Below are positions 2,733 to 62,833 of a DNA stretch of 64,000 nt, in pieces. The stretch lies in NCBI GenBank assembly GCA_019695375.1, contig JAIBAC010000002.1, forward strand, positions 700 to 64,699. The letters are read 5' to 3'. The translations under genes were made by a program, and so were the position numbers. The stretch's first letter is position 1, and every line of letters begins with the position of its first letter. The notes under the pieces are model-generated. The model saw only the letters and a list, made by a program, of their open reading frames with translations, did no database searches and had not been told where the DNA came from. Source of the stretch: Acidimicrobiia bacterium. GTDB lineage: Bacteria > Actinomycetota > Acidimicrobiia > UBA2766.

Positions 2733-5134
2733 GACTCGATCCGCTCGACCGCGGAGCCGTTGGGGCCGTTGGACACCTCGAAACGCAGCGGCACGCGCTC
2801 GGCCAGGTCGCTGACGTGGGTCACGAGGCCGACCATGCGTCCGCCGGCACCGAGCTCCTCGATCGCAGCGGCGACGACGTCGAGGGTGTCGGCGTCGAGG
2901 GTGCCGAAGCCCTCGTCGAGGAAGAGCGACTCGAGGCGGGCCGCCCCGCGCGTAGCCATCGACGCGATGTGCTCACCGAGGGCGAGCGCCAGCGCGAGCG
3001 ACGCCAGGAACGTCTCGCCTCCCGACAACGTGCGCGCCGAGCGCGGCTGGTCGGCGTTGCGGTGGTCGATGACGTCGAACCCGCTCGCCTTGTCGTCGAG
3101 GGCGAGCGAGTACGCACCACCGGAGAGCTCCTCGAGGATCTCGCTCGCCCCGATCACGAGCTGCTCCTGGGCCTCGCGCTGCAGCCACGTCTGGAAGCCG
3201 TCGGTCTTGAGGTGGCGCCCGAGCGTGTCGGCGACCTTCCTCGCCGCCTCGAGGCCTGCCATCTCGGTGCGCAGCGAGCGCGCCTGCGCCAGGTTCGTCT
3301 CCGCGGTCGCATGCGCGATGCGGGCCTGCTCGGCGGCGCGGGGCACTCCGGCGGTGAGCCCGGCGACGTCGTCGACCTCGATGCCTATTTCTGCGGCTGC
3401 CGCGCAGAGCTCAGTGACGACCGCTGCCGCCGTCGACTCGGCCTTGGCGACGGCGGCCTCTGCACCGGCGAGCGCGTCTCTCTGCGCGGGCACGAGGTCA
3501 GCGGCCCAGCGCGCAAGTGCGGCCCAGTCGTCGCGCAGGTCCTCTTGGCCGGGCTCGGGCGGCGTCCAGGCGGCGACCCGGTCGCGGCCGGCGAGGAAGC
3601 GGCCGCGGGCGTCCTTGTCCGCCTTCTCTGCGCCGTCGAGGGCTTGACGCGCCTTGGCGTGGTCAGCGCGTGCGGTGTCGAACGTGGACGTAGCCGACCG
3701 CACCGTCTCTTCGAGCTCGGTCCGCCGCCTCTGCTGCTGGGCGCATTCGTCGGCGGTGGGAGCTTCGGCGAGCTCGGCGGCCAGCTCGGCCTCCTGCTCG
3801 TGCAGGCGCTGGAGCTGGCCGGCGGCATCACGGTGGTCGCGGGCGGCGGCGCTCGCGGTTGCCCGTGCCGCGTCGGCCTGGGCCTCGGCGTCCTGGAGCG
3901 CTGCCTGCGCGGCGGGCACCTCGGCCGGTGTGTCCAGGGACGGCACGGTGGTGACGGTCTGGGCGCAGACGGGGCAGGGCTCGCCGGGAGCGAGGGTCTC
4001 GGCGAGCGTGTGGGCGAGATGGCTGTCCTGCACGCTGCGCAGGTGGCGCCGCGCAACCTCGACCTGCTCGTCTGCCGCCTTTGCGGCAGTCGTCGCGTCG
4101 TCCTCGGCCGCAGCGAGTGGGGTCAGGGATTCCCCGAGGTCGTGGATCTGGGCCGCGAGCTTCGCGCGGCGCTCGTGCGCGGCTCTCACGCGGCCGAGCA
4201 CCCCCGCATCGGGGAGCTCGTCGACGGCGGCGGTCGCCTCGCGCAACGTGTCCGCAGCCGCAGCCTCGCGGGCTTCGGCCTCGGCGACGGCACGCCGCGC
4301 CACCGCGACGGCCTCGGCGATGTCGCCGATGCCGTCTGGCACCTGGACGGCACCGAGCACCGCGATCGCGTCGCTTGCAGTCGCGGCGTCATCGCGCCCG
4401 CGCCGCACGCTCTCCTGGAGTGCCTGCAACTGCGGTTCGGCTGTGCGCAGGCGCGCCTCGAGCGCCTCGGTCTCCCGGCAGCGCTGCGCCGCACCGGCCA
4501 CCAGCTCCTCCGATGCCGCGCCGATCTGCTCGAGCTTGCCGTCGAGAACCTTCACCTCGGTCGCGAGCGACGCTGCACGCTCGCGCGCTCGTTTGCCCAT
4601 CTGCTCGTACACCCCGAGGTCGAGGAGGCGCATGAGCAGGGCCTGACGGTCCTTGGGCTTGTCGAGCAGGAACTGCGCGAACTCGCCCTGGGGCAGCACC
4701 ACGCAGCGGGTGAAGTGCTCGAAGCCGAGTCCGAGCAGCCCCTCGACGGCTTTGGTCACCTCGTCGGCGGTTCCGGCGAGCACCTCGGGATCGCCGCCGC
4801 TGTGGACGCGCTCGAGGCGGGCCTCCTTGGTCGTGGCCCCCTTGCCCTTGGTGCGCCGCACGACCCGCGTGGCGACGTAGTCGTCACCACCGACGGAGAA
4901 CTCGAGACTGACGACCGCCTCGTTGCGGCTCTGGCTCACGACCGGGGCGACGGCACGCAGGTCGTCGTAGCGCGGCACCGCCCCGTAGAGGGCGAAGACG
5001 ATCGCGTCGATCAGGCTCGACTTACCCGCACCCGTGGGGCCGCAGAACGCGAACAGGTCGGCGCCGTCGAAGTCGACGACGGTGCGCCCGCGGAACGAGG
5101 TGAAGCCCTCGAGCTCAAGACGCCGCGGGCGCAT
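2729..5134 (-). CDS. sbcC: SbcC/Rad50 family ATPase (DNA double-strand break repair)
   Basis: Starts MRPRRLELEGFTSFRGRTVVDFDGADLFAFCGPTGAGKSS (Walker A). Zinc hook CPVC is present, with long coiled-coil Ala/Glu-rich regions. RBS GGAGGA lies upstream of ATG 5134. Overlaps the sbcD stop by 20 nt. Confidence 0.85.
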   Translation of the reverse strand: MRPRRLELEGFTSFRGRTVVDFDGADLFAFCGPTGAGKSSLIDAIVFALYGAVPRYDDLRAVAPVVSQSRNEAVVSLEFSVGGDDYVATRVVRRTKGKGATTKEARLERVHSGGDPEVLAGTADEVTKAVEGLLGLGFEHFTRCVVLPQGEFAQFLLDKPKDRQALLMRLLDLGVYEQMGKRARERAASLATEVKVLDGKLEQIGAASEELVAGAAQRCRETEALEARLRTAEPQLQALQESVRRGRDDAATASDAIAVLGAVQVPDGIGDIAEAVAVARRAVAEAEAREAAAADTLREATAAVDELPDAGVLGRVRAAHERRAKLAAQIHDLGESLTPLAAAEDDATTAAKAADEQVEVARRHLRSVQDSHLAHTLAETLAPGEPCPVCAQTVTTVPSLDTPAEVPAAQAALQDAEAQADAARATASAAARDHRDAAGQLQRLHEQEAELAAELAEAPTADECAQQQRRRTELEETVRSATSTFDTARADHAKARQALDGAEKADKDARGRFLAGRDRVAAWTPPEPGQEDLRDDWAALARWAADLVPAQRDALAGAEAAVAKAESTAAAVVTELCAAAAEIGIEVDDVAGLTAGVPRAAEQARIAHATAETNLAQARSLRTEMAGLEAARKVADTLGRHLKTDGFQTWLQREAQEQLVIGASEILEELSGGAYSLALDDKASGFDVIDHRNADQPRSARTLSGGETFLASLALALALGEHIASMATRGAARLESLFLDEGFGTLDADTLDVVAAAIEELGAGGRMVGLVTHVSDLAERVPLRFEVSNGPNGSAVERIES

Positions 5135-42631: not shown

Positions 42632-43051
42632 TCAGCCGAGGTCGGCCAGCAGCCCGATGAGATCGGTGCGCAGGCGCGTGAGCTCGTCGCGGTGCGCCGA
42701 GGTCAGGGCCCCGAGGACTGCTTCGCCGGCGTCGGTCAGCGCGAGGCGGTGCTGGCGCGCGTCGGAGGGGTCGGCGACGCGGTGGACGAGTCCGGCAGCC
42801 TCGGTGCGTGCAACCAGCTCGCCGGCGGAATGGTGCTTGAGGAACAGCGCTGCCGCGATGTCGGAGACGTTGGGGGCGCCGGGGCCGGGATGGCCGCGGA
42901 CGGCGAGCAGGAGCTGGTGCTGCGCCGGCGTCAGGCCTTCGCGGCGGGCGGCGCTCTCGGAGAACTCGAAGAAGCCGTGCAGGAGGTGGCGGAACCGCGC
43001 GAGGTTCGCGTAATCAGCGTCGCTGAGGGCGGTGCGGTCACGCCGCGGCAT
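42632..43051 (-). CDS. MarR-family transcriptional regulator
   Basis: LTPAQHQLLLAVRG...VSDIAAALFLKHHSAGELVARTEAAGLVHRVADPSDARQHRLALT. Confidence 0.85.
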   Translation of the reverse strand: MPRRDRTALSDADYANLARFRHLLHGFFEFSESAARREGLTPAQHQLLLAVRGHPGPGAPNVSDIAAALFLKHHSAGELVARTEAAGLVHRVADPSDARQHRLALTDAGEAVLGALTSAHRDELTRLRTDLIGLLADLG

Positions 43052-44309
43052 CGGCGGCTCCGGTTTGTGGCGGTGAGGACGGGACGGTGCGGTCGCGCTG
43101 GGAGTGGATGAGCCCGAAGCGGTTCGTGATCAGGAGTGCGGTGACGGCCGCGAGCAGCGTGGTGGGCAGGAGCGGGAGACCCGCCATCCCGGCGACGACG
43201 AGGGTCGACCCCACCGGGGTCTTGGTGACCGCGACGCACGCGGCGGCCATGAAAGCCGCCATCAGGGCGGCTTGATTGGTGCTCGGCACGACGGTGTGGA
43301 TCGCGCATGCGGCTGCCGCCCCGCAGAAGAACAGGGGGATGATGAACCCGCCGCGCCATCCGGTGCAGAGCGTCACGACGCTCGCGATGAGCTTCGCCAC
43401 GAGTGCGACCAGGAGGACCTTGACTGCGAGGTTGCCGTCGATGAGCTCCTGGATCTGCTGTTCGCCGAAGGTCAGGGCGAACGGTGACCAGAGGGCGAGG
43501 AGGCCGAGGGCGAGCCCGCCGAGGACGGGCCGCAGGGTCGTCGGTACCACGCTGAGGCCGCGGCGCAGCCACGAGGCACCGAGCGCGAACGCGACCCCGA
43601 TCGCCGCCCCACCGAGGCCGGCGAGGAGGGCCCAGCCGAAGTCGACGAGCGACAGGCTGCCGGCCTCCGGGAACTCCCAGATCGGTCGGAGGCCGACGCC
43701 GGTCAGGATCGCGTGGACGCCGTAGCCGAAGAGGCTCCCTACGAGCGCGGGGACGAGCGCCTCGTAGTACTCCATCCCGCGACGATGCAGGATCTCGAGG
43801 GCGAAGAACGCGCCGCCGATGGGGGTGCCGAACAGGACCGTGAAACCGGCAGCCATTCCGGTGATCGTGAGGATGCGGAGCTCCGAGCGCGAGGCGCGGC
43901 CGCGGCGGGCGAGCCACGATCCGAGCGAGCCCGTCGTCTGCACCAGCGGTGCCTCGGGGCCCATCGCGCCGCCGGCGCTGATGCAGAGCAGTGACACCGG
44001 CAGCAGCGAGCGCAGCTCGCGCAGGTCCTCCTTGCCGCCTAGGACGTGGATGTTGTCGACGAGGAGCTCGACGTCGCCGGGGCTGCCCACGAAGCGGACC
44101 ACCAGGGCGACCACAGCACCGACGCAGGTCAGGATCACGATCTGTACGGCCCCGGAGTGGGCGCCGGGTCCCAGGATCCTGTCGAGCAGATGCATGAGCC
44201 CCACATAGCCCGCGCCGACCACGCCGCCCATCGCGCCGACCGCGCAGACCCCTACGAGGAGCCGGGGCGGGATACCGAGGACTGCTTCATGGCGATGCCG
44301 TCGCAACAC
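43038..44309 (-). CDS. Voltage-gated chloride channel (ClC) family protein
   Basis: GSPGDVE, GKEDL (GKEGP-like), GAMGPEAP, GTPIGGAFFALE ClC selectivity motifs. Confidence 0.85.
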   Translation of the reverse strand: MLRRHRHEAVLGIPPRLLVGVCAVGAMGGVVGAGYVGLMHLLDRILGPGAHSGAVQIVILTCVGAVVALVVRFVGSPGDVELLVDNIHVLGGKEDLRELRSLLPVSLLCISAGGAMGPEAPLVQTTGSLGSWLARRGRASRSELRILTITGMAAGFTVLFGTPIGGAFFALEILHRRGMEYYEALVPALVGSLFGYGVHAILTGVGLRPIWEFPEAGSLSLVDFGWALLAGLGGAAIGVAFALGASWLRRGLSVVPTTLRPVLGGLALGLLALWSPFALTFGEQQIQELIDGNLAVKVLLVALVAKLIASVVTLCTGWRGGFIIPLFFCGAAAACAIHTVVPSTNQAALMAAFMAAACVAVTKTPVGSTLVVAGMAGLPLLPTTLLAAVTALLITNRFGLIHSQRDRTVPSSPPQTGAADAAA

Positions 44310-44369
44310 AGTTATATCGTATCACGACATATATCCCTCCCCGAAAGCCGGCGAGTCGCGAGCCGGGGC

Positions 44370-44570
44370 GCGCGGGCCCCGTCGGGGCCGGGTGCGGACG
44401 TGGGGACGTGGATCGGCGTGAGAGCGCGTTCTGCGTCCCCACGTCGGGGACGGGTGCGGACGTGGGGACGTGGATCGGCGTGAGAGCGCGTTCTGCGTCC
44501 CCACGTCGGGGACGGGTGCGGACGTGGGGACGTGGATCGGCGTGAGAGCGCGTTCTGCGTCCCCACGTCG
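44370..44570. repeat. Tandem array of three identical 62-bp hairpin units, MIRU/VNTR-like
   Basis: Period 62 (units start 44390, 44452, 44514). Each unit has stem GACGTGGGGACG/CGTCCCCACGTC with a 25-nt loop. A degenerate partial unit precedes the array. Confidence 0.85.
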
Positions 44571-44586
44571 ATGCCGGGTAGCCGCT

Positions 44587-45771
44587 TCAGTCGGGCAGGG
44601 TGGCCTCGATGACACCGGGGAGGGCGTCCTCGATGGGGCGGCCCGAGCGCAGGTGGACCGGCCAGCGCTTGCGGGACTTGGCGGCGAGGCGGCGCATCAG
44701 GGTGACGGCGGCAGGGTCCTCGTCGACGGCGGACTTCACCTCGAGCCAGCCCTCGGACACCATCTCGTCGAAGATCTTGCGGCCTGTCTCAGTGCGGACG
44801 ATCGTCAGCGTCCACCCGCCGGTCTGACCGAGGCCCCCCATCGAGATGTCGGCGTGCTCGGCGGCGAAGTCAGGACACGTCGTGCAGCCGGGGCGCGTGA
44901 ACTCGTGGCACTCCGACAGCGGCACCTCGAGGTAGTCGCCCTCCACGACGCCGGGGCGGGTCCAGAGCTGGAGCTTGCCTTTGATGTTCATCTTGACGAT
45001 GTCGCTGCGGGCGAGGCCGTACTTGGGCGCGATCAGGTCCTCGAAGATGTCGTCGGTGAACGACTTCGAGCACAGCAACCCGATGGTGAGCACGAACTTC
45101 TTGCCGGACTTGCGGGCGCCGCGGGTCATCATCATCGGCGGAGACGACGTCATGCATCCCATCCCGACGAGCGCGAGCTTCTCGGCCCCGGCGTCGATCG
45201 CCTCCTGGTACGCAAGGGGGTTTGCGGAGTACGTGTACCGCGAGCCCGCTGCCCGCAGGACGTCGGCCTCGGTGGTGGCGACGCCCGGCGTGGCACGCCA
45301 TTCGTCGTCGACGTAGCTCACGAGCGCGGCGTCGATGTGTCCCTTGCGCAGGCACCAGATCAGCATCGCCGTGCAGAAGCCGCCGTCCTGGCCCTTGTCG
45401 AGCCAGTCGGGGTCGACGGTGCGCACCAACAGGACGTCCTGGTGGATGCCGATGACCTCCTTCTGGGTCGGCTTGCGCTCGCGACCGTGGAGGAACTCGT
45501 CGATCTCGGGTTCCCACGCGCGAAACCGCGGGCACGCCCGCGTGCACATCGTGCACGCCTTCTCACCGTGGACGCAGCGGTCGGCGGCACCGTCGACGCG
45601 GGCCTCCTCGGCGAGGACCGGGTGCCAGTGCTCGTCGTAGCCGAGGACGTCGTGGGGGCAGGCGACGATGCAGCCGCTGCAACCGGTGCACACGTTGGTG
45701 GCCACGACCTCGTTCTGGAGGTGGTTCCAGTGCAACAGCCAACGTGGCTTCTTCTGGACTTCGCCGGCCAC
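44587..45771 (-). CDS. Coenzyme F420 hydrogenase/dehydrogenase beta-subunit (FrhB/FpoF)-family protein with N-terminal 2x[4Fe-4S] ferredoxin domain
   Basis: CTGCSGCIVACP and CTMCTRACP cluster motifs, then an FrhB-like domain. Start uncertain (GTG about 45771 with GGGAGA RBS, or upstream). Confidence 0.65.
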   Translation of the reverse strand: MAGEVQKKPRWLLHWNHLQNEVVATNVCTGCSGCIVACPHDVLGYDEHWHPVLAEEARVDGAADRCVHGEKACTMCTRACPRFRAWEPEIDEFLHGRERKPTQKEVIGIHQDVLLVRTVDPDWLDKGQDGGFCTAMLIWCLRKGHIDAALVSYVDDEWRATPGVATTEADVLRAAGSRYTYSANPLAYQEAIDAGAEKLALVGMGCMTSSPPMMMTRGARKSGKKFVLTIGLLCSKSFTDDIFEDLIAPKYGLARSDIVKMNIKGKLQLWTRPGVVEGDYLEVPLSECHEFTRPGCTTCPDFAAEHADISMGGLGQTGGWTLTIVRTETGRKIFDEMVSEGWLEVKSAVDEDPAAVTLMRRLAAKSRKRWPVHLRSGRPIEDALPGVIEATLPD

Positions 45772-45808
45772 GGCCAGTGTCTCCCGGGTGGTGGACGATG
45801 GCGAGAGC

Positions 45809-47221
45809 CTACGTGACGGGCCCGCCACCGGCCGAAGCAGCGATGGCTGCCGCCGCCGGGACGCTCGGGCCGCCACGGCGCAGCGCCCGCGTCATGCGGA
45901 CCGCAGTCACGACGCCCACGACCGTGATCGCAGCCCCGGTCGCGAGCGTGAAGGTGTACGACCCCGCGACGGTCTCACCGCCCCCGACTTCGACGAGGGA
46001 GAGGAACACGGCGATTCCCGTCGAGTTCGCGAGCTGAGACGTGAGCGAGAGCACGCTTGCCGCCGGCCCGAGCAGCTCGCGGGGGGACCGGCTCGTCACA
46101 ACGGTGCCGATCGCCGACGACGACAGGCCGAGCCCGACGCCCTGGAGCACGAGCGCGAGGAGCAGCAGCGGGTAGTTGGGCTGATCCGGGAGGAGCGCGA
46201 GGACCACGAGGGCGGCGGCGACGAGCGAGCTGCCACCGACGGTGAGGGCTCCTTCGCCCAGGCGCGAGGTGAGGCGTGGGATGAACGGGCCTGTTATCCC
46301 CATGGCGATGGGACGGGGAAGGAGTGCGAAGCTGACGAGTGCCACGTCCCAGCCCCAGATGTCACCGAGGAACAGCGGCATCACGATGAAGCTGCCCATG
46401 TACGCGGCGTTGACGACGAAGCGGCTCGTCATCCCGTTGGCTATCGCCCGCTCCAGGAAGAGGCGCAGGGGCACGATGGGGTTGTCAGCCCTCTGCTCGG
46501 TGCGGACGAACAGTGCGGTCGCGGTCACTGCGACGGCGATGCACGCGAGCACGGGTGCGGATGTCCAGCCCCACTTGGGAGCCTGGTTCACGCCGAGGAG
46601 GAGAGTGGTGACGGCGGCTGCCGCCAGCACGGTGCCCATGGTGTCGAAGCGGCCCTTGGTCTCGATGCGCTGCTCGTCGAAGACAACGAACGCCAGCAGC
46701 CACGCCAGCAGTGCGAGTGGGAGCTGCATGGCGAAGAGCCAGCGCCAGCTCAGCCACTCGACGACGACGCCGCCGACGATCCCCAGGGCGGGGGCGAAAG
46801 CGACCGTTGCAGTCCAGTAACCGATGGGCGTGGAGCGCGCCTCCGGTGGGTAGTGGCTCGTAGCCATCGCGAGACCCGATGGCAGCACCCAGGCGGTGCC
46901 GAAGCCGGTCAGGAGGCGCGCTGCGATCAGCGCCGGCAGCGACCACGCCACTGCCGAGAACGCCATCCCGGCGATCGTGATCGCGAAGCCGACGAGCCAG
47001 ATCCGGCGACGGCCGAAGCGGTCGGCGATGCGACCTGCGGGTGGGGTGAGGAGGGTCGCGAGGACGATCGGCCCGAGTGTGATCCACGCCGTGTCGCCGG
47101 TCGAGGCCCCGAACTCGTCTGCGATCGTCTTGATCGCGATCCCGAGGATGGTGAGGGTGAGGTTGACGGCGAAGGTGGCGAGGAGCACCACTGCGAGCAC
47201 CCACGCGCGACGGCCTCGGAC
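45809..47221 (-). CDS. MFS transporter (DHA2-like, 14 TMS)
   Basis: GRIADRFGRRRIWLVG MFS motif A. Start set at GTG 47221, preceded by GGAGG. The longer ORF would overlap tetR. Confidence 0.8.
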   Translation of the reverse strand, partial: VRGRRAWVLAVVLLATFAVNLTLTILGIAIKTIADEFGASTGDTAWITLGPIVLATLLTPPAGRIADRFGRRRIWLVGFAITIAGMAFSAVAWSLPALIAARLLTGFGTAWVLPSGLAMATSHYPPEARSTPIGYWTATVAFAPALGIVGGVVVEWLSWRWLFAMQLPLALLAWLLAFVVFDEQRIETKGRFDTMGTVLAAAAVTTLLLGVNQAPKWGWTSAPVLACIAVAVTATALFVRTEQRADNPIVPLRLFLERAIANGMTSRFVVNAAYMGSFIVMPLFLGDIWGWDVALVSFALLPRPIAMGITGPFIPRLTSRLGEGALTVGGSSLVAAALVVLALLPDQPNYPLLLLALVLQGVGLGLSSSAIGTVVTSRSPRELLGPAASVLSLTSQLANSTGIAVFLSLVEVGGGETVAGSYTFTLATGAAITVVGVVTAVRMTRALRRGGPSVPAAAAIAASAGGGPVT

Positions 47222-61184: not shown

Positions 61185-61417
61185 GACGTGGGGACGTGAA
61201 ACGTCCTGTGACGCCGATCTGCGTCCCCACGTGGACGGGCGGTGCGGACGTGGGGACGTGAAAGGGCCTGTGACGCCGATCTGCGTCCCCACGTGGACGG
61301 GCGGTGCGGACGTGGGGACGTGAAAGGGCCTGTGACGCCGATCTGCGTCCCCACGTGGACGGGCGGTGCGGACGTGGGGACGTGAAACGTCCTGTGACGC
61401 ACGCTCGCGTCCCCACG
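61185..61417. repeat. Tandem array of four 62-bp hairpin units, same family as 44370..44570, with loop variants
   Basis: Units start at 61185, 61247, 61309 and 61371. Shared stem GACGTGGGGACGTG/CGTCCCCACGT. Copies 2 and 3 are identical. Copies 1 and 4 differ in the loop. Lies between convergent genes and abuts the proS stop. Confidence 0.85.
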
Positions 61418-62833
61418 TCAGTACGCGCGGGCGACGTATGCGACGAGACCGTCGTCGGGCGTGTCGGCTCCGGGTACCCCGCCGTCGGGTGACACCAGGC
61501 AGCGGACCGTGTAGCCGGCTTCGGCGATCGTCGCCTCACCCGCCTCTCCGAGGGACGACCACGCGATGCGGGTGAACCCATCGGCGCCGCCGTCGAGGAC
61601 TGCATCGGGGCCGTCCCCATCGCGGGTCTCGGCGTCGCGGCGCGCCGTCGTCTCCGCGAGCAGGCTCGCCTGCACGTCGTCGAGCAGCCGGACCACAGCG
61701 GCACCTATCCCGGAGCGGGGATGTGAGGCCTTCTCGCCGGTGTCGCGGCGCACGACCGTCACAGCAGCCTGCTCGACGTCACGTGGGCCGAGCTCGAGGC
61801 GCACGGGAACACCCTTGATCTCCCAGTCCGTCGCGCGTCGACCGAAGCCCGTGTGCGTGTCGTCGTCCAGGCGGCTGCGCACACCTGCCGCTTCGAGTTC
61901 TGCGTGGAGCTCACGAGCGTCGGCGGCGACCTCGTCGCGGATGGCGATCACCACTGCCTGCACCGGTGCGACACGAGGTGGCAGCCGCAGCCCGCGATCG
62001 TCTCCGTGGGTCATGATCAGTGACCCGACGACGCGCGTGGACACACCCCACGACGTCGTGTGGCAGTGAGCGAGTTGCCCGTCGGTGTCGCTGAAGGTGA
62101 TGTCGAAGGCACGCGCGAAGTTCTGGCCGAGGTAGTGGCTGGTGCCCATCTGCAGCGCCTTGCCGTCACGCATGAGGCCCTCGAGCGTGTAGGTGAGCTC
62201 GGCGCCTGCGAAGCGCTCGGCAGCGGTCTTGCGCCCGAGCACGGGGTTCATGGCGAGGGTGTCATGCATCAGGTCGTAGTAGACGCGATGCATCCGCAGC
62301 GTCTCCTCGACCGCCTCCTCGCGGGATGCGTGAGCGGTGTGCCCTTCCTGCCACAGGAACTCGCTCGTGCGCAGGAACAGCCGCGGGCGGAGCTCCCAGC
62401 GCACCACGTTTGCCCACTGGTTGAGCAGGAGCGGGAGGTCGCGGTGGGACTGGATCCAGCGGCTCATGCAGTCGCCGATCACTGTCTCCGACGTCGGGCG
62501 GACCGCGACCGGCTCGCCGAGCTCGGCGCCACCACCGTGGGTCACGACCGCGAGCTCGGGGCTGAACCCCTCTACGTGATCAGCCTCGCGTTCGAAGAAC
62601 GGCATCGGGATGAACAGAGGGAAGTATGCGTTCTCGTGACCGGTCTCCTTGATGCGCGAGTCGAGGTCGGCCTGGATCCGCTCCCAGATCGCGTACCCCC
62701 ATGGCCTGATCGTCATGGTGCCGCGCACAGGGCCGTTCTCAGCGAGCTCGGCCTTTGCGATCACGTCCTGGTACCAGCGAGGGAAGTCCTCGGACTGCGG
62801 TGTCAACACCGGCTGCTTGCTCATCGGAGCCAC
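61418..62833 (-). CDS. proS: Prolyl-tRNA synthetase, archaeal/eukaryotic-type (class IIa, no editing insertion)
   Basis: RPWGYAIWERIQADLDSRIKETGHENAYFPLFIP ... 471 aa with a C-terminal zinc-binding-like domain. Confidence 0.9.
   Translation of the reverse strand: MAPMSKQPVLTPQSEDFPRWYQDVIAKAELAENGPVRGTMTIRPWGYAIWERIQADLDSRIKETGHENAYFPLFIPMPFFEREADHVEGFSPELAVVTHGGGAELGEPVAVRPTSETVIGDCMSRWIQSHRDLPLLLNQWANVVRWELRPRLFLRTSEFLWQEGHTAHASREEAVEETLRMHRVYYDLMHDTLAMNPVLGRKTAAERFAGAELTYTLEGLMRDGKALQMGTSHYLGQNFARAFDITFSDTDGQLAHCHTTSWGVSTRVVGSLIMTHGDDRGLRLPPRVAPVQAVVIAIRDEVAADARELHAELEAAGVRSRLDDDTHTGFGRRATDWEIKGVPVRLELGPRDVEQAAVTVVRRDTGEKASHPRSGIGAAVVRLLDDVQASLLAETTARRDAETRDGDGPDAVLDGGADGFTRIAWSSLGEAGEATIAEAGYTVRCLVSPDGGVPGADTPDDGLVAYVARAY

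Follow-up and report, generated by a model that had tools for sequence, protein, structure and literature searches.

To our knowledge, mechanistic understanding of REP-type repeats rests solely on HUH-Y1 (RAYT) enzymes and comes mostly from Proteobacteria. Mycobacterial MIRUs lie within operons, where stop and start codons overlap, and have no 12-bp perfect palindrome at their core; we know of no replichore polarity or associated nuclease gene described for them. In P. fluorescens SBW25, REPs arranged in tandem face in opposite orientations on the two replichores (PMC3116915). IS200/IS605 elements have their active hairpin on one specific strand, with an orientation coupled to the lagging-strand template (PMC6006769). 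The CGTC-tagged REPs combine stems of 8–9 bp and loops of 4–5 nt with an unpaired CGTC tag and form head-to-head dimers, head-to-tail arrangements being negligible; they come mostly from Alphaproteobacteria, with none reported from Actinobacteria, and are explicitly termed an ‘orphan’ class without a dedicated transposase (Di Nocera et al. 2013, PMC3733652).

The locus considered here lies in a 64,000-nt stretch of DNA from an Acidimicrobiia bacterium (hereafter the window), in which a sequence-only reading had noticed three identical 62-bp hairpin units, each with a 12-bp stem and a 25-nt loop. TRF, the sequence itself and folding all bear this description out. TRF delimits the array (array 1) at 44380–44570, with a period of 62, 3.1 copies, 99% matches and a score of 375, and an nhmmer family profile gives a higher score to the + strand, which here is the R strand as defined below, than to the − strand. 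Each unit consists of the 12-bp stem, the 25-nt loop and a 13-nt linker, the hairpin part measuring 49 nt. By sequence and fold, hairpin 1 (44397–44445, +) reads GACGTGGGGACG, the loop TGGATCGGCGTGAGAGCGCGTTCTG and CGTCCCCACGTC, and the same sequence recurs in hairpin 2 (44459–44507, +) and in hairpin 3 (44521–44569, +), whose end lies 17 nt short of the neighbouring FrhB-like stop codon. The G-rich linker GGGGACGGGTGCG occupies 44446–44458 and again 44508–44520 on the + strand; a near-copy, GGGGCCGGGTGCG, precedes hairpin 1 at 44384–44396. With at most one mismatch, the stem 12-mer occurs 14 times in the window compared to 2.2 ± 1.7 times in shuffled sequence (0 of 100 shuffles reach 14), and the array 1 region folds more stably than shuffled controls on the + (z = −5.5) as well as the − strand (z = −6.3). 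In the + strand fold, the stem reaches 16 bp by way of G.U pairs, and a small inner helix forms within the loop.

Pfam matches agree with the proposed location of array 1 between an FrhB-like gene and a ClC gene, both on the − strand. Upstream lies the FrhB/FdhB-like gene (44587–45876, −; Pfam and homologues), whose real start is probably later than that of this longest ORF, as judged from homologues of about 395 aa. Downstream follows the gene of a ClC-type channel (43038–44309, −; Pfam), the 3′ end of which is overlapped by a MarR gene (42632–43051, −). Three nucleotides upstream of the ClC GTG start, the sequence contains an AT-rich imperfect palindrome, TTATATCGTATCACGACATATAT (44312–44334, no strand assigned), which is kept in the orthologous loci L072 and L080 and is probably the promoter/operator of a leaderless ClC–MarR operon. 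Array 1 sits upstream of this palindrome, between it and the FrhB-like stop codon. ORFs of 84–97 aa that cross the array, e.g. 44312–44566 (−) and 44322–44615 (−), are annotation artefacts because the 62-bp period does not divide by three, and a coding-repeat reading of array 1 was ruled out for the same reason.

The unit is present elsewhere, which the sequence-only reading had proposed to check by counting loci. Array 2 (61185–61419, +; R again on +) comprises four 62-bp units with the stem and period of array 1, as seen by TRF, sequence and family profile; its loop (TGAAAC/GG..CTGTGACGCCGATCTG) and linker (GACGGGCGGTGCG) differ from those of array 1. It is located between convergent genes, and its last stem overlaps the stop codon of the adjoining aaRS-like gene (61418–62833, −) by 2 nt. 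A hand alignment in which array 2 appeared inverted relative to array 1 was ruled out by linker composition and the family profile, both of which place R on the + strand in the two arrays. Searching the 64-kb window with the family profile returned seven copies, all in arrays 1 and 2 and no others.

A pattern scan for stem-N20-30-stem, run on one genome per species with matches retrieved as 8-kb blocks, yielded at least 71 loci. Among the matches listed, 65 are separate 8-kb blocks of a single Acidimicrobiia bacterium MAG, STL-ACT9 (JAXLRM01; about 0.5 Mb sampled), and five stem from the Actinomycetes MAG SOY_34. STL-ACT9 differs from the window genome: its block L069 is the orthologous FrhB–ClC locus and shows 85% and 80% nucleotide identity. 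The blocks retrieved contain at least 197 hairpins in at least 80 arrays of 1–9 units each, and the loop measures 25 nt in 188 of the 197; the STL-ACT9 blocks hold at least 74 of these arrays with at least about 180 hairpins, which are extragenic. Arrays occur at a density of about 1 per 50 kb and are intergenic. Their period, among the matches listed, is 62 in 60 cases and 72–73 in 26, with a few at 83 and 104, the longer periods reflecting extra 10–11-nt GGTTCGG-like sub-repeats in the linker. These period classes step by about 10.5 bp (e.g. L029 2678–3088, L010 7605–7756 and L058 2231–2451).

Beyond these genomes, the array-1-specific loop had no matches in a metagenome scan, the general stem pattern gave two matches in JGI metagenomes, neither belonging to the family, and viral contigs gave none. 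The hairpin family is confined to a narrow lineage, and JGI metagenomes and viral contigs hold essentially none of it. Perfect long AT-rich hairpins with a GACGTGGGGACG arm at L044 6256–6307, L085 4548–4601 and L086 3549–3599 are unrelated to the family; they lie in AT-rich Bacillota and metagenome contigs and are probably ordinary terminators. The units of the sequence-only reading are real, and what it had missed are the genome-wide family, array 2, the strand polarity of the unit and a nuclease gene associated with the arrays.

Strand polarity is evident from base composition and folding, since one strand, R, is G/T-rich and folds better than its complement. In STL-ACT9, R reads GACGTGGGGACG-TGAGGTGGGTTGTGGACCCGTTTTG-CGTCCCCACGTC, after which comes a tail, e.g. 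GGGGGTTCGGATG. The 49 nt of R form a continuous hairpin of ~22 bp including about six G.T(U) wobbles, at which the complement has C.A mismatches, and the typical fold energy is −37 kcal/mol for R vs −29 kcal/mol for the other strand. At the inner pairs 13–18 of 91 distinct hairpins, G.T outnumbers A.C on R by 241 to 42. In a pairing test that covered 61 distinct sequences and at least four genomes, with 500 shuffles and a slid partner as controls, 88.4% of the cells were paired, compared to 84.9% after shuffling (0 of 500 shuffles reach 88.4%) and 36–57% when the partner was slid. Across the same 61 sequences, the 12 outer stem pairs are essentially invariant and pairs 13–22 co-vary as a CG/UG/UA-type series. 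The outer stem is therefore under constraint as sequence, and this invariance suggests recognition by a protein; the inner helix is under constraint as structure, and on one strand. The 3′ flank is G-rich in every array (88% G at position +1), the 5′ flank has the consensus GGAT(C/G) in about 46% of arrays, the foot of the hairpin is GACG, and the tails have one G-rich and one C-rich strand. All arrays are arranged head-to-tail as judged by G/C and A/T skew; by folding energy, one array, L059, reads ‘+−’.

The polarity of the unit extends to whole contigs. R lies on the − strand in 26 of 26 arrays of JAXLRM010000003.1 (1.5 Mb) and on the + strand in 31 of 31 arrays of JAXLRM010000004.1 (1.34 Mb), and the smaller STL-ACT9 contigs are likewise uniform, except for one switch on contig 8. 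There, JAXLRM010000008.1 carries ‘+’ at L042 (40–48 kb) and ‘−’ at L011, L032 and L040 (96–128 kb). In the array-containing 8-kb blocks, the strand with R carries 62% of the coding bases on contigs 3 and 4, and the third-position T-A skew has opposite signs on the two contigs (−0.086 ± 0.013 on contig 3, +0.053 ± 0.013 on contig 4), the GC3 component of the skew being weak. From this gene-strand bias and AT3 skew in array-containing blocks, we infer that R is the leading-strand sequence and therefore the lagging-strand template, which is transiently single-stranded; this inferred leading-strand sequence shares its orientation with 57 of 57 arrays of the two large contigs. If R is indeed the leading strand, the switch on contig 8 would imply that replication terminates (at dif) somewhere in the interval from 48 to 96 kb. 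The window itself has 68% of its coding bases on the − strand while R is on +, at odds with the STL-ACT9 pattern; its skew agrees weakly with R on + (r_GC3 +0.018 ± 0.009).

With respect to transcription, R is sense in 20 and antisense in 12 spacers between genes of the same direction, as the 62% gene-strand bias alone predicts. The orientation of the arrays is independent of the neighbouring genes and fixed per contig or replichore. Gene context was assessed by two methods, ORF calls, which leave many gaps in the STL-ACT9 blocks (possibly MAG frameshifts), and a frame score. Both find arrays over-represented at convergent spacers (ORF calls, 13 of 29; frame score, 22 of 66; background, 20%) and also present at tandem and divergent spacers; they disagree on a depletion at the latter, with 3 of 29 by ORF calls vs 12 of 66 by frame score.

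The exact identity of the copies had been taken as a sign of recent expansion, and the family at large supports this view. Within STL-ACT9 arrays, loops are 97.5% and linkers 86% identical, vs 80.5% and 47.5%, respectively, between arrays; because within-array identity exceeds between-array identity, the arrays grow by local duplication of hairpin-plus-linker units, and their copy number changes as such units are locally duplicated or deleted. VNTR-like behaviour had been postulated as well, and a comparison of the FrhB–ClC spacer among relatives reveals copy numbers of 3, 2, about 1 and 0. Specifically, the window has three units with a period of 62, STL-ACT9 (L069) has two units with a period of 82 and a different loop, L080 has one unit plus a truncated one, L072–75 have an unrelated 511-nt spacer lacking any hairpin, and L076–79 and L081–84 have none. 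Between the window and STL-ACT9, a base-by-base count at this locus gives 24 of 24 identical stem positions and 14 of 25 identical loop positions. L072–75 represent the closest FrhB relative, with 89% amino acid identity to the window protein. The L072 spacer is simply a different sequence rather than a clean empty site, and no target-site duplication or transposition intermediate came to light. At L072 6722–6937 (also in L073–L075), a 71-aa reverse ORF with a DUF4140 match is called, which may be real or spurious.

A candidate partner protein emerged from the gene content around the arrays. Among the matches listed, L039 and L008 are the only places at which a gene of ~1 kb lies between two hairpin arrays, and in both cases, in STL-ACT9 (L039 5810–7105) and in SOY_34 (L008 3436–4940), this gene encodes an AbiEi_4 wHTH fused to a DUF559/REase_MTES_1575 nuclease domain. 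DUF559 proteins, of unknown function, are very common in actinobacteria. The L039 and L008 proteins share 30% identity, and no second copy of the gene was found in the 0.6 Mb sampled, i.e. it is single-copy per sampled genome. Homologues of the STL-ACT9 protein (P0121) with 39–69% identity are found almost exclusively on contigs of 1.0–1.4 kb, which begin and end inside the flanking hairpins (L087–L100 and L106); the gene resides on such ~1-kb contigs because short-read assemblies break inside the hairpin arrays. The NCBI protein P0121 itself ends in a hairpin-translated tail, ...TPDVGTRSGSTTPLTSPRP (L039 6996–7049), which is an annotation artefact.

The hairpins that flank these homologues change with the protein. 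L087 and L088 share the GACGTGGGGACG stem and have a loop in which 17 of 25 positions agree with the array 1 loop of the window. Other hairpins flank L095 (39% identity) and L106 (42%), with stems CGTGTGCGT/ACGCACACG and CGCGTGT/ACACGCG, yet their architecture resembles that of the window: L095 has a 45-nt hairpin with a period of ~61 and a G-rich linker (1005–1110), and L106 has its hairpins at 1–45 and 1085–1109. A homologue of 33% identity (L104) lies between direct copies of a 44-nt hairpin element (3981–4024 and 4978–5021) that contains a perfect 13-bp palindrome, and its start codon falls within the upstream copy. P0128 and P0127 are flanked by differing hairpin sequences, so that protein and repeat co-vary; the distant homologues L101 and L105 have no common flanking repeat. 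Between the upstream hairpin and the start codon of the nuclease gene, a leader (TGTCACAGG...CTTCCCC) is conserved, and the stop codon often lies inside a hairpin. Relative to R, the gene is in the opposite orientation in STL-ACT9 and co-oriented in four other lineages. Altogether, it is embedded between hairpin arrays in seven lineages and in every close lineage examined, and with about one array per 50 kb, the likelihood that one gene is flanked on both sides by chance in all seven is negligible.

The structure of the nuclease was predicted with a pLDDT of 94. Its two N-terminal domains match AbiEi (6Y8Q) and Rv2827c (1ZEL), and the C-terminal domain matches the homing endonuclease I-Bth0305I (3R3P, TM 0.75), Vsr (1VSR) and 3HRL; the residues D..ExDG..H..RD are invariant. 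Vsr is specific for mismatches, and we know of no strand transfer by PD-(D/E)XK/Vsr-type nucleases. A regex scan of six-frame translations covering about 0.6 Mb for the HUH/Y motif pair of RAYT proteins had no match; with about 0.5 Mb of STL-ACT9 covered, a RAYT/Y1 transposase may lie elsewhere in that genome. A literature search on DUF559, Vsr-like nucleases or Acidimicrobiia in connection with repeats returned no earlier description.

On balance, we think it probable, though with no great margin of confidence, that array 1 belongs, as one locus among many, to a dispersed, lineage-specific, REP-like family of selfish hairpins whose propagation would be coupled to replication and whose partner would be a non-RAYT nuclease. 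In the mechanism we propose, R serves as the lagging-strand template, and the G.T-tolerant hairpin would extrude as single-stranded DNA during replication. The family may then spread or be maintained by a replication-coupled, hairpin-dependent process, formally like that of IS200/IS605 and REP/RAYT, with the AbiEi-DUF559 protein as a sequence-specific partner that would bind the invariant stem and nick. At the locus itself, array 1 is probably carried as a passenger, neutral or selfish, in the interval that separates the FrhB-like stop codon from the ClC promoter/operator. Hairpins at the 3′ end of the FrhB-like transcript plausibly affect RNA stability or read-through, as a by-product rather than as the reason for the array.

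A bolder and more tentative version, which we regard as possible but would not bet on, is that the family represents a new REP-like class of enzyme and repeat in Actinomycetota, in which the cognate enzyme is an AbiEi-type wHTH joined to a Vsr/EDxHD-fold nuclease rather than an HUH transposase. Here, the wHTH would read the invariant stem, and the Vsr-like domain would have as its target the T.G-mismatched hairpin, which the lagging-strand template alone would extrude. If true, the one-strand G.T signature and the perfect replichore polarity would both be accounted for, and the action of the nuclease would drive the repeats to disperse and to amplify in tandem.

Equally, the partner gene could be a selfish gene of the homing type that merely targets the arrays. 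An independent AbiEi-DUF559 gene that inserts into existing arrays would account for the similarity of its C-terminal domain to I-Bth0305I, for the direct orientation of the flanking arrays, which insertion into an array predicts, for the frequent location of its stop codon within a hairpin and for its varying orientation relative to R. Yet, the gene is single-copy per sampled genome, whereas arrays are numerous, and leader (TGTCACAGG, CTTCCCC) and gene are always found with hairpins, even where these have changed, which fits a co-evolved cognate pair. The hairpins would moreover have to spread by other means, be it an unseen Y1/RAYT enzyme, for which the motif scan of 0.6 Mb gave no match, or recombination and slippage. 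We judge this explanation unlikely, albeit one to be kept in mind.

Less probable still is that the arrays have been selected by the host as RNA elements, i.e. that array 1 is a factor-independent terminator or insulator, or stabilises the 3′ end of an mRNA, at its place between the FrhB-like and ClC genes. In favour are the high stability of the hairpins, the position of array 1, which begins 17 nt past a stop codon and precedes the likely ClC promoter, the convergent genes on either side of array 2 and the enrichment of arrays at convergent spacers; furthermore, REPs elsewhere stabilise mRNA and can terminate transcription (PMC6006769). However, an intrinsic terminator in the usual sense, with a GC-rich stem, a loop of 3–8 nt and a U-tract, was ruled out, as there is no U-tract and no terminator-like site in 44000–44900, and neither a terminator nor a promoter consensus was found around array 1. 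Rfam had no match in the window at the gathering score and, with an E-value threshold, gave no more than sub-threshold chance matches on the STL-ACT9 arrays. The orientation of the arrays tracks the contig rather than transcription, the mRNA at this locus would bear the weaker F form with its C.A mismatches, and the closest relative (L072–75) has no array in this spacer. In addition, the stem is invariant in sequence instead of co-varying, which points to protein recognition rather than mere structure, and termination needs no multiple copies. Consequently, the terminator, insulator or structured-RNA function that the sequence-only reading had suggested is not supported as the primary role of the array.

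About as improbable is the view that the arrays are double-stranded DNA binding sites without mobility, namely phased inverted-repeat operators for the AbiEi-like wHTH protein or another nucleoid protein, with a KOPS/BIME-like role in chromosome organisation. Binding of AbiEi proteins to tandem inverted repeats is indeed on record (PMC7319586), the outer stem has an invariant sequence across genomes, the flanks of the nuclease gene bear such sites themselves, and the replichore polarity resembles that of architecture-imparting sequences. The periods of 62, 72–73, 83 and 104 differ by about 10.5 bp, i.e. one helical turn, but these 10–11-nt steps are also explained by duplication of GGTTCGG-type sub-repeats in the linker. 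What B-form DNA cannot give meaning to is the one-strand bias of G.T over A.C and the co-variation of the inner helix; likewise, presence or absence and rapid copy-number turnover among close relatives speak against a conserved architectural role.

Finally, an assembly artefact or a degenerate CRISPR array can be dismissed almost entirely: exact repeats may arise as assembly errors and the period of 61–62 equals that of type I-E CRISPR, but assemblies made independently in separate projects (STL-ACT9, SOY_34, ENA and Logan contigs) have the same architecture, the ‘spacers’, here the loops, are identical within arrays and common to about 70 arrays instead of unique, and the genes flanking both window arrays carry unrelated Pfam annotations, with no cas gene beside either array.

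Given the strict replication orientation, the one-strand G.T signature and the DUF559 partner, a mechanism for the family is testable with one protein and a 49-nt oligonucleotide, and for DUF559/AbiEi fusions the hairpin would constitute a first candidate substrate. In practical terms, the arrays break short-read assemblies and generate spurious ORF calls, and they could be used as VNTR markers for an uncultured lineage.

Compared to known systems, the MIRU analogy drawn by the sequence-only reading holds in part. Like MIRU-VNTRs, the family consists of tandem intergenic repeats of 40–100 bp that are scattered over an actinobacterial chromosome and polymorphic in copy number. The analogy breaks down at the operon location with overlapping, repeat-borne stop and start codons, as the arrays occupy convergent, tandem and divergent spacers and 62 is indivisible by three. 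The likeness to IS200/IS605 consists in the hairpin strand, which we would place on the lagging-strand template. Unlike these elements and hairpin MITEs, however, the family forms tandem arrays with variable linkers; in the sampled DNA, neither a TnpA(Y1) nor defined LE/RE with a target tetra- or pentanucleotide came to light, but a weak GGAT(C/G) 5′ motif did. The CGTC-tagged REPs share with it a CGTC/GACG motif at the hairpin, and a RAYT has been identified for neither, in the case of the window family within the ~0.6 Mb scanned; in this family, though, the stem measures 12 bp (22 bp with wobbles), CGTC lies inside the stem and the arrangement is exclusively head-to-tail.

The family is most like REP/BIME-RAYT, yet it has neither the GTAG tag nor the inverted pairs that define that system, nor, in the ~0.6 Mb covered by the motif scan, a RAYT. 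Its hairpins measure 49 nt rather than the 20–40 nt of REPs and have a GACG foot in place of the GTAG/GTGG (GT[AG]G) guide tetranucleotide; they are arranged strictly head-to-tail and, throughout, in a single orientation per replichore. The gene they flank encodes an AbiEi-wHTH with a Vsr/EDxHD (DUF559) nuclease instead of an HUH-Y1 RAYT, and the host belongs to the Actinomycetota (Acidimicrobiia). Nevertheless, the family shares with REP/BIME/REPIN-RAYT (the ‘REPtron’) short extragenic hairpins in tens to hundreds of copies with a species-specific sequence, which are often clustered and found at the 3′ ends of genes, as well as a single-copy protein gene flanked by cognate repeats, protein and repeat co-varying between lineages. 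For the orientation pattern of the arrays, the closest precedent is likewise a REP system, namely the tandem REP arrays of SBW25 (PMC3116915).
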